DNA of 64,000 nt from a virus, in the UHGV virus genome UHGV-0179803. One strand, written 5' to 3'. The notes under the pieces are model-generated. The model was not told the DNA's origin and ran no database searches. It saw only the letters and a program-made list of their open reading frames with translations. A program made the position numbers and the translations under genes. Within the stretch, counting starts at the first letter, position 1. Each line of letters starts with the position of its first letter. Of this stretch, positions 56,087 through 56,812 are shown in pieces.

Positions 56087-56551
56087 ATGCCAAACTTTAG
56101 ACCTACTACAGAAATAGATTTAGTCGGACATAACTTCATCATAACCCATTGGTCCCCGATGGTGTGTATGCATAACCTGCCAAAGATTGGTAGGATTATC
56201 GCTGTGCCGATGGGAGCTATTGGTGGTGAATTACTTAATGGTGGGAGAAATTTAGCAGAAGTGCTCCCAACAGCCTTAGTCTATCTGTTCGAACAACTTG
56301 ATGACCAATCTATTGACGAACTGTTTAAAATCCTCTTCAGCGATGTTACAGTAGACGGTGTGGACAAGGTGGATCCTGATAAACTCTTTACTGGCAATCT
56401 GTTTGCAATGCTTAAACTGGCTGGTAAGGTGCTGGAGGTAAATTACGGATCTTTTTTCACGCAAGAAGGTTTAGACGGCCTGATGTCGATGTTGCAGGGA
56501 CTGCAAATGGCGAATCAGATCAACAGTCTGGACCAGGAAACTCAGGAATAA
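56087..56551 (+). CDS. tail assembly chaperone (G-like)
   Basis: 154-aa ORF immediately upstream of tape measure gene; contains in-register slippery heptamer; -1 frame ORF 56563..56808 follows. Confidence 0.6.
   Translation: MPNFRPTTEIDLVGHNFIITHWSPMVCMHNLPKIGRIIAVPMGAIGGELLNGGRNLAEVLPTALVYLFEQLDDQSIDELFKILFSDVTVDGVDKVDPDKLFTGNLFAMLKLAGKVLEVNYGSFFTQEGLDGLMSMLQGLQMANQINSLDQETQE
56452..56458 (+). other. -1 programmed ribosomal frameshift slippery site T_TTT_TTC
   Basis: heptamer in zero-frame register (codons TTT TTC = FF of GSFFTQ); the -1 frame is open from here to stop at 56806-56808, predicting a ~240-aa G-T-like fusion. Confidence 0.5.
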
Positions 56552-56808
56552 GCAAAGTCGTATTGCAGGCCAGCGAGTGGGCAAGGAAACATAGCTCACT
56601 CAGCTGGTTCGATTTCCTGTGGTGTAAAGTGTTGAAAGGGTTTCGTGGTGAGAACTATGAATCTCTCAATAGCGCCGACATGGACTACTTCTTGATGTTG
56701 TGTGAGTATCTTGACATAGAAGAGTTCCTTGACGGTGTTCAGAACAAAGAGTTTGAGAGAGAGCAAGAAGCCAGGATAGCCCAGGCAAAAGCGAAACGTA
56801 GACGTTAA
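56458..56808 (+). CDS. frameshift extension of tail assembly chaperone (GT-like C-terminal part)
   Basis: -1 frame relative to 56087..56551, open continuously from the slippery site; ends 58 nt before tape measure start. Confidence 0.45.
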   Translation, partial: HARRFRRPDVDVAGTANGESDQQSGPGNSGISKVVLQASEWARKHSSLSWFDFLWCKVLKGFRGENYESLNSADMDYFLMLCEYLDIEEFLDGVQNKEFEREQEARIAQAKAKRRR

Positions 56809-56812
56809 AGCA

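Follow-up and report, generated by a model that had tools for sequence, protein, structure and literature searches.

The window analysed here, a 64,000-nucleotide stretch of the virus genome UHGV-0179803, contains directly upstream of its tape measure gene two overlapping open reading frames (ORFs) that very probably give rise to a short and a long form of a tail assembly chaperone through a lambda G/GT-type programmed −1 ribosomal frameshift at the heptamer T_TTT_TTC. We refer to the zero-frame chaperone gene as G and to the −1 frame segment that would be reached from it as T. Taken together, the heptamer, its synonymous positions, the frame kept through a linker of variable length and the inconsistent starts assigned to the T segment show, as far as comparative sequence analysis can, that the slip site is under selection at the nucleotide level and that it is the point from which the −1 frame is translated.

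The chaperone locus and its predicted fusion

A codon count from 56087 and a script agreed in placing T_TTT_TTC at 56452–56458 in the zero-frame register, as a previous reading of the sequence alone (the sequence-only reading) had proposed. The codons, starting at 56087 + 3k, are TCT at 56450–56452, TTT at 56453–56455 and TTC at 56456–56458, which corresponds to the X_XXY_YYZ register, and no other X_XXY_YYZ heptamer is found in the overlap between G and the −1 frame of the window. The −1 frame opens at 56428 and ends with the TAA at 56806–56808, overlapping G by 40 codons; it is thus open from the slip site to 56808, as had been claimed, and the ORF listed at 56563–56808 lies in this same frame. 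The end of the feature, previously given as 56811, had been set 3 nucleotides (nt) beyond the stop codon. The fusion, join(56087..56458, 56458..56808), would comprise 124 + 116 = 240 amino acids (aa), in agreement with the earlier estimate of about 240. The peptide across the slip junction would read …VNYGSFFHAR…, and the predicted trans-frame tryptic peptide spans …VLEVNYGSFFHAR.

Profile searches upheld the identities that had been suggested for the genes of the locus. The upstream ORF matches the Pfam family PF21822 Phage_TAC_15 with 85.6 bits against a gathering cut-off of 22 (E 5.3e-24), residues 14–127 aligning with positions 2–124 of the 127-position profile, and it also matches phrog_3840, ‘tail assembly chaperone’ (E 1.5e-55). 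The tape measure gene, which had been placed immediately downstream, indeed starts at 56866 and matches phrog_5255 (E 3.9e-237) and Pfam TMP_3 (E 7.4e-19). For the −1 segment the match is to phrog_10409 (E 5.4e-39), whose members are proteins of about 82 aa with ‘unknown function’; in relatives, then, the −1 segment has been called as a separate small gene. The T part consists of an RRFRRP motif, a linker rich in Gly, Ser and Asp, a conserved C-terminal domain (ISKVV..SSLSWFDFLW..EYLDIEEF) and a basic tail; the C-terminal domain is helical-looking and conserved, and the linker varies in length. The TTG at 56563, the mechanical start given by the ORF lister, sits inside the conserved ISKVVLQASEW helix of the T domain. 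In the window the tube gene occupies 52455–52928, G 56087–56551, the T frame extends to 56808 and the tape measure gene occupies 56866–59220, with an insertion of 3.1 kb separating the tube gene from G. The pair of ORFs therefore lies directly upstream of the tape measure gene and between the tube and tape measure genes, the position expected of a G/GT pair. The order sheath–tube–chaperone–small ORF (T)–tape measure is common to the window, rV5 and FV3.

Conservation of the slip site and the −1 frame among relatives

By tblastn, which places the locus among the rV5-like myophages, the window's chaperone shares about 70% identity with those of coliphage rV5 and of FV3; roughly 490 phage records have a match, and every strong tblastn match splits into two pieces in different frames. 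A megablast search of the region against the phage collection gave no match, and relatives were reached by protein-level search; the nearest are IMG/VR contigs with 99% protein identity and about 93% nucleotide identity. The comparative sample consisted of 54 relatives (11 phage records and 43 IMG/VR loci) with 28–99% protein identity to the window's fusion. The records cover Vequintavirinae (Vequintavirus, Seunavirus, Mydovirus and Certrevirus), Stephanstirmvirinae, Plateaulakevirus and Barbavirus, and the codon alignment was made from 20 non-redundant chaperone genes.

The conserved G/GT arrangement with a programmed −1 site, as put forward in the sequence-only reading, is borne out by this sample, in which an X_XXY_YYZ heptamer lies in register within the G/−1 overlap in all 54 relatives and is conserved also at a synonymous position. 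The heptamer is TTTTTTC in 52 of them; the remaining two have C_CCT_TTT followed by A (the IMG/VR locus L037) and G_GGA_AAG (Barba21A). Between the heptamer and the stop of the chaperone ORF there are about 31–36 codons in the group of rV5-like Vequintavirinae and about 22–23 in Stephanstirmvirinae. Past the chaperone stop the −1 frame continues for 74–98 codons in the relatives (68 codons in locus L036, where the end of the contig is reached). The stretch that separates the slip site from the SSLxW motif comes in 13 different lengths, from 32 to 61 codons, and in every case it keeps the −1 frame and is free of stops; fourteen Stephanstirmvirinae-like loci have no exact T-domain motif, and their −1 frame was covered in the scan for heptamers and open frames. 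The RFR motif that follows the slip site is conserved among the relatives. Between the slip site and the conserved domain there is no ATG in the window or in most relatives, and no start is conserved there.

Selection at synonymous positions

The heptamer in one genome alone is weak, suggestive evidence. X_XXY_YYZ occurs in register 32 times in the 14,143 codons of the window's long ORFs, a rate of 0.0023 per codon, and the chance expectation is about 0.09 in-register heptamers in the 41 codons within which a shift would be productive. In-register TTTTTTC occurs only once in these ORFs, at the chaperone site. It is the conservation in relatives that takes the heptamer far beyond chance.

In the codon alignment, codon 122 encodes Ser, Cys or Pro (TCT, TGT, AGT or CCT, with a majority residue of 55%), and its third base is T in all 20 genes; codon 123 is TTT in 20 of 20 and codon 124 is TTC in 19 of 20. 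The chaperone genes use 66 TTT and 53 TTC codons for Phe, so that the fixed choice of TTT followed by TTC is not a matter of codon bias. Over the G ORF as a whole, the mean frequency of the majority base at a third position is 0.52 ± 0.16; if the single-codon Trp is set aside, codons 122 and 123 alone have a third base that never varies.

The alignment columns on either side of the heptamer also deserve mention. Upstream, in codons 119–121 (56441–56449), AAC is found in 85–90% and TAC in 75–80% of the genes, even though TAC makes up 35% of their Tyr codons; dual coding offers no explanation for this synonymous conservation. Downstream, GGT is found in 95% at codon 128 (codons 128–129, 56468–56473), and conservation on this side is accounted for by dual coding with the R-F-R motif of the −1 frame.

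Proposed mechanism and rival explanations

In the mechanism that we propose, most ribosomes would translate 56087–56551 and release the 154-aa chaperone. A minority would slip one base back with UUU (56453–56455) in the P site and UUC (56456–56458) in the A site; both tRNA-Phe would re-pair with UUU, and reading would resume from 56458 in the −1 frame and continue to 56808. The resulting 240-aa protein would carry the same N-terminal chaperone domain, followed by a flexible linker and the conserved C-terminal domain. If lambda is a guide, the N domain common to both forms would coat the product of the adjoining tape measure gene, the long form, which is the less abundant of the two, would recruit tail-tube subunits by means of its C-terminal domain, and both forms would be absent from the virion. 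The occurrence of the ribosomal shift, its efficiency and the binding partners of the two domains are what we infer.

The same locus could in principle be read as a by-product of coding, in which the T run arises only from the conserved Phe-Phe pair, the −1 frame merely happens to be open and the chaperone exists in its short form alone. Such a coincidence would draw on the background rate of in-register heptamers given above, when this genome alone is considered, and on the Phe-Phe pair being 95–100% conserved as amino acids. It has next to no probability in our view, as it leaves unexplained the invariant third-base T in a codon of varying amino acid, the fixed choice of TTT TTC, the long −1 frame kept open past the G stop in 54 of 54 relatives and the strong conservation of the −1 segment at the protein level, visible both in phrog_10409 and in the alignment. 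We also regard as highly improbable that G and T are two separate genes, with the downstream ORF starting on its own, for instance at TTG 56563, and the heptamer being incidental. The ORF lister does report 56563–56808 as an ORF of 81 aa, and in GenBank and RefSeq most records of relatives show a separate ‘hypothetical protein’ at this place. However, the annotated starts in relatives are inconsistent and some records have no ORF at all. Read back from the candidate starts, the −1 frame stays open and keeps its conserved RFR motif as far as the slip site, well upstream of all of them, and the stretch leading from there to the conserved domain mostly lacks an ATG. TTG 56563 itself encodes a residue inside the conserved helix, and indels in the linker always keep the −1 frame back to the heptamer.

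Another rival is transcriptional slippage, in which RNA polymerase would occasionally add an extra U on the run of six T at 56452–56457 and ordinary translation of the altered mRNA would follow. The site is a homopolymer of six T, the 240-aa fusion would be identical and sequence alone cannot fully separate this route from a ribosomal slip; polymerase slippage is a known alternative route to −1 frame products (Atkins review, PMC5009743). Nevertheless, L037, with only four T, and Barba21A stay in register without a long run, and their heptamers fit the rules of tRNA re-pairing and not those of polymerase slippage. With the conserved third-base T of codon 122, the X_XXY_YYZ register is complete. 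Bacterial RNA polymerase typically needs A or T runs of about 8–9 or more to slip appreciably, and six T is shorter than this. A slippage site would be recognised by a conserved run length and not by register, whereas the relatives keep the register and not the run. We therefore consider polymerase slippage on its own very unlikely.

It is also unlikely, taken as one possibility, that the slip signal extends beyond the heptamer or that the long form comes from polymerase slippage on the T run. With a broader signal, the locus would be a frozen cassette shared across several myophage families, frameshifting without RNA structure. The elements of the cassette are the raised synonymous conservation in AAC-TAC-GGN just upstream, the T6C heptamer, a Shine-Dalgarno (SD)-like element 10–12 nt upstream in about half of the lineages and a near-invariant GGUUU 10 nt downstream. 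The shift might then be driven by pairing between rRNA and mRNA or by the conserved nascent peptide N-Y-G-x-F-F. If a broader signal or polymerase slippage were at work, the clade would be a natural test bed for structure-independent −1 frameshifting.

As a further candidate, a +1 shift was considered and rejected: the +1 frame closes 2–19 codons past the G stop in the window and in the relatives.

Stimulatory elements and points against frameshifting

Several observations weigh against a programmed ribosomal frameshift at T_TTT_TTC. A search for a hairpin or pseudoknot 5–9 nt downstream of the heptamer had been suggested, an element that marks the structure-stimulated signals of the IS3/IS911, dnaX and coronavirus type; none appeared in the folds of the window or as a conserved element among relatives, with the folding covering hairpins and pseudoknots not being searched for explicitly. 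Single-sequence folds of the window gave no significant structure downstream of the heptamer (z = +0.36, +0.17, −1.13 and −1.19), RNAalifold on nine relatives returned 0 consensus pairs downstream of it, folds with shuffles in 17 lineages gave z near 0 except in Aeromonas phage 4L372D, and Rfam gave no match above chance. The literature yielded no experimental evidence for frameshifting in the window phage or in any rV5-like phage, and the genomics and proteomics paper on rV5 mentions neither a frameshift nor a chaperone. The counts over 54 relatives overstate the number of independent events, since the relatives share phylogeny. The Phe-Phe pair is conserved as protein, so coding explains part of the T run, and what is left as non-coding signal comes mostly from codon 122, through its third base, and from which Phe codons are used. 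Reporter assays in E. coli put the shift at well under 1% for heptamers that lack a stimulator (PMC4066793), and the yield of the long form may accordingly be very low unless the partly conserved GGAGGT helps.

This GGAGGT, at 56434–56439 within the coding sequence of G, forms a duplex with the 3′ end of 16S rRNA of −10.7 kcal/mol. An SD-like match of at least 6 nt is found 10–12 nt upstream of the heptamer in 10 of the 21 non-redundant lineages, four others have a weaker GGAG and the remaining 6–7 none. The spacing of 12 nt between the SD-like element and the heptamer in the window is within the range reported to stimulate −1 shifts, about 10–14 nt for signals of the dnaX type. GGAGGT may enhance the shift in the window phage; it coincides with conserved Leu-Glu-Val codons and could simply reflect them. 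Lambda-type G/GT sites reportedly need no downstream structure, a finding attributed to Levin et al. in 1993. As for the heptamer itself, among A-site tetramers in E. coli, U_UU.C is the second most shift-prone after A_AA.G, and all-pyrimidine heptamers are among the more shift-prone ones (PMC4066793).

Aeromonas phage 4L372D (locus L010) has a hairpin at about 1524–1560, some 5 nt after the heptamer, with −15.9 kcal/mol and z = −4.0, and this hairpin is possibly a lineage-specific stimulator. In the same phage, the −1 frame has no more than 3 open codons up to the end of the heptamer, and two of these are read in the slip itself.

Comparison with known systems

The closest counterpart is G/GT of lambda (Levin, Hendrix & Casjens 1993; Xu, Hendrix & Duda 2004, 2013 and 2014; summarised in PMC5009743), for which the model has the tape measure protein bound by the N domain common to both forms and the tube protein brought in by the T domain. 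Like the window, lambda has two overlapping ORFs just ahead of its tape measure gene; the second lies in the −1 frame and has no start of its own, and the pair yields one short protein and one long fusion without needing RNA structure downstream. The features by which G/GT pairs are recognised at the sequence level (Xu, Hendrix & Duda 2004), namely the gene order, the −1 overlap, the heptamer and its conservation, are all present at this locus. The differences are also clear. We saw no detectable sequence similarity to gpG and gpT, and the window has T_TTT_TTC instead of G_GGA_AAG, the heptamer of Barba21A, which we take to be lambda's own G/GT heptamer. The window phage is a contractile-tailed rV5-like myophage, and its cassette has its own consensus promoter and terminator as well as the 3.1-kb insertion after the tube gene.

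An in silico study of 2025 has proposed that an invariant GTTTTT serves as slip motif in the chaperone genes of two families that it describes as structurally related to Vequintavirinae, Vandenendeviridae (Pakpunavirus and others) and Andersonviridae (PMC12846349). As in the window, these phages have a T run at the 3′ end of TAC-N and a −1 frame open through the locus in all genomes, with the downstream ORF routinely misannotated as a separate hypothetical gene. They are other phage families, however, and the likeness concerns the core of the motif and the argument. Phage P2, with its E/E+E′ pair, resembles the window in being a contractile-tailed phage with a −1 shift between two small ORFs upstream of the tape measure gene, and its frameshift efficiency is reported to be 2–3 times that of lambda (PMC5009743).

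The E. coli dnaX site, which combines A_AAA_AAG with an upstream SD-like element and a downstream hairpin, shares with the window an internal SD-like element, here 12 nt upstream. Unlike dnaX, the window has no downstream hairpin, and its frameshift product would be an extension and not a truncation; a strong version of the SD-like element is confined to about half of the relatives. T4-like phages have the same need for short and long chaperone forms. According to the summary of Vladimirov, Gautam & Davidson 2022 given in PMC10885494, they encode the two as separate genes without frameshifting, whereas the window has a single copy of the N domain and a C-terminal part that can be reached only via the −1 frame. 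A sequence search of the Protein Data Bank with the profile of the fusion gave a single weak match, 5ir0_A (‘Uncharacterized protein ORF19’, 161 aa, E 0.13), which aligned over the chaperone domain and could be a structural relative; a search of NCBIfam gave no match.

Features around the cassette

The features of the locus are listed in Table 1. The promoter and the terminator bracket the G/GT cassette, which suggests that the chaperone may be transcribed as a unit of its own, with the tape measure gene needing read-through. The terminator-like hairpin has a minimum free energy of −22.5 kcal/mol and z = −4.46, with 0 of 200 shuffles as stable, and it was missed by a simple pattern scan because its stem has an internal mismatch. 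The rV5 record annotates a ‘Sigma70-type promoter P51’ and a rho-independent terminator at the equivalent places.

Table 1. Predicted features of the chaperone locus, in positions of the window.
Feature	Position	Strand	Basis
Gene G (TAC-N), zero-frame chaperone product, 154 aa	56087..56551	+	ATG start, TAA stop at 56549–56551, translation
Slippery heptamer T_TTT_TTC	56452..56458	+	Register read from the sequence and script check
−1 frame extension (T part), 116 codons + stop	56458..56808	+	Translation, alignment, phrog_10409
SD-like GGAGGT within the coding sequence	56434..56439	+	12 nt 5′ of the heptamer; putative stimulator
Sigma-70-type promoter, TTGACA-17 nt-TATAAT with TG extension	56012..56040	+	12/12 consensus matches; predicted function
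Hairpin with T run resembling an intrinsic terminator, after GT and ahead of the tape measure gene	56812..56848	+	Folding
Tape measure protein gene, 784 aa	56866..59220	+	phrog_5255, Pfam TMP_3; presumed chaperone client

A second promoter-like site (11/12) together with a terminator-like hairpin and T run is found at 55841–55892, right after the stop of a 380-aa ORF. This ORF (54702–55844), which has weak tail-fibre-like matches, and an HNH/homing endonuclease gene (52971–54560; phrog_559, E 1.5e-103) are the two extra genes between the tube and chaperone genes, at 52971–55844, where rV5 and FV3 have nothing. The nearest IMG/VR loci, L013 and L015, have the endonuclease without the 380-aa ORF, and L012 and L014 differ again, so that the interval between tube and chaperone genes looks like an insertion hot spot. 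On the other side of the cassette, between the T segment and the tape measure gene, Rheinheimera phage Barba21A (L011, 1832–2470) has an HNH endonuclease on the opposite strand and phiTE (L005, 1794–2680) has extra small ORFs.

The window also encodes a tRNA-Arg(TCT) at 37900–37975, which reads AGA. The first −1 codons after the slip (56458–56478), CAC GCA AGA AGG TTT AGA CGG, are rich in Arg codons that are rare in E. coli; a link between the two is speculative.

Annotation in public records and significance

The long form of the chaperone was annotated as a joined coding sequence in none of the 13 records of relatives examined, including the RefSeq records of rV5 and FV3. The −1 segment appears instead in various guises. 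In the rV5 record it is an ORF of 369 nt overlapping the chaperone gene, and in those of FV3 and GAP31 it is an ORF starting just after the chaperone stop. Only its last 43–60 codons are called in the records of VLCpiM5b, phiTE, CR8 and A5-4, and no ORF is called for it in those of alia and slur16. The tblastn tables likewise give a two-feature annotation under the match for the records listed there. A literature search found no paper stating a G/GT slip site for Vequintavirinae, Stephanstirmvirinae or rV5-like phages. The ‘frameshift peptides’ obtained by mass spectrometry in a Klebsiella phage study belong to T4-like phages and have no bearing on this site.

The window site is another instance of the well-established G/GT frameshift of long-tailed phages and leaves the general understanding of that system unchanged. 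That a single heptamer hardly varies among proteins sharing only some 30% of their residues is a clean illustration of selection at synonymous sites. With one rule, a join at T_TTT_TTC, the long chaperone could be restored to the annotation of Vequintavirinae, Stephanstirmvirinae and allied genera, several of which serve in phage therapy. Such an annotation rule would reach hundreds of rV5-like and related genomes.

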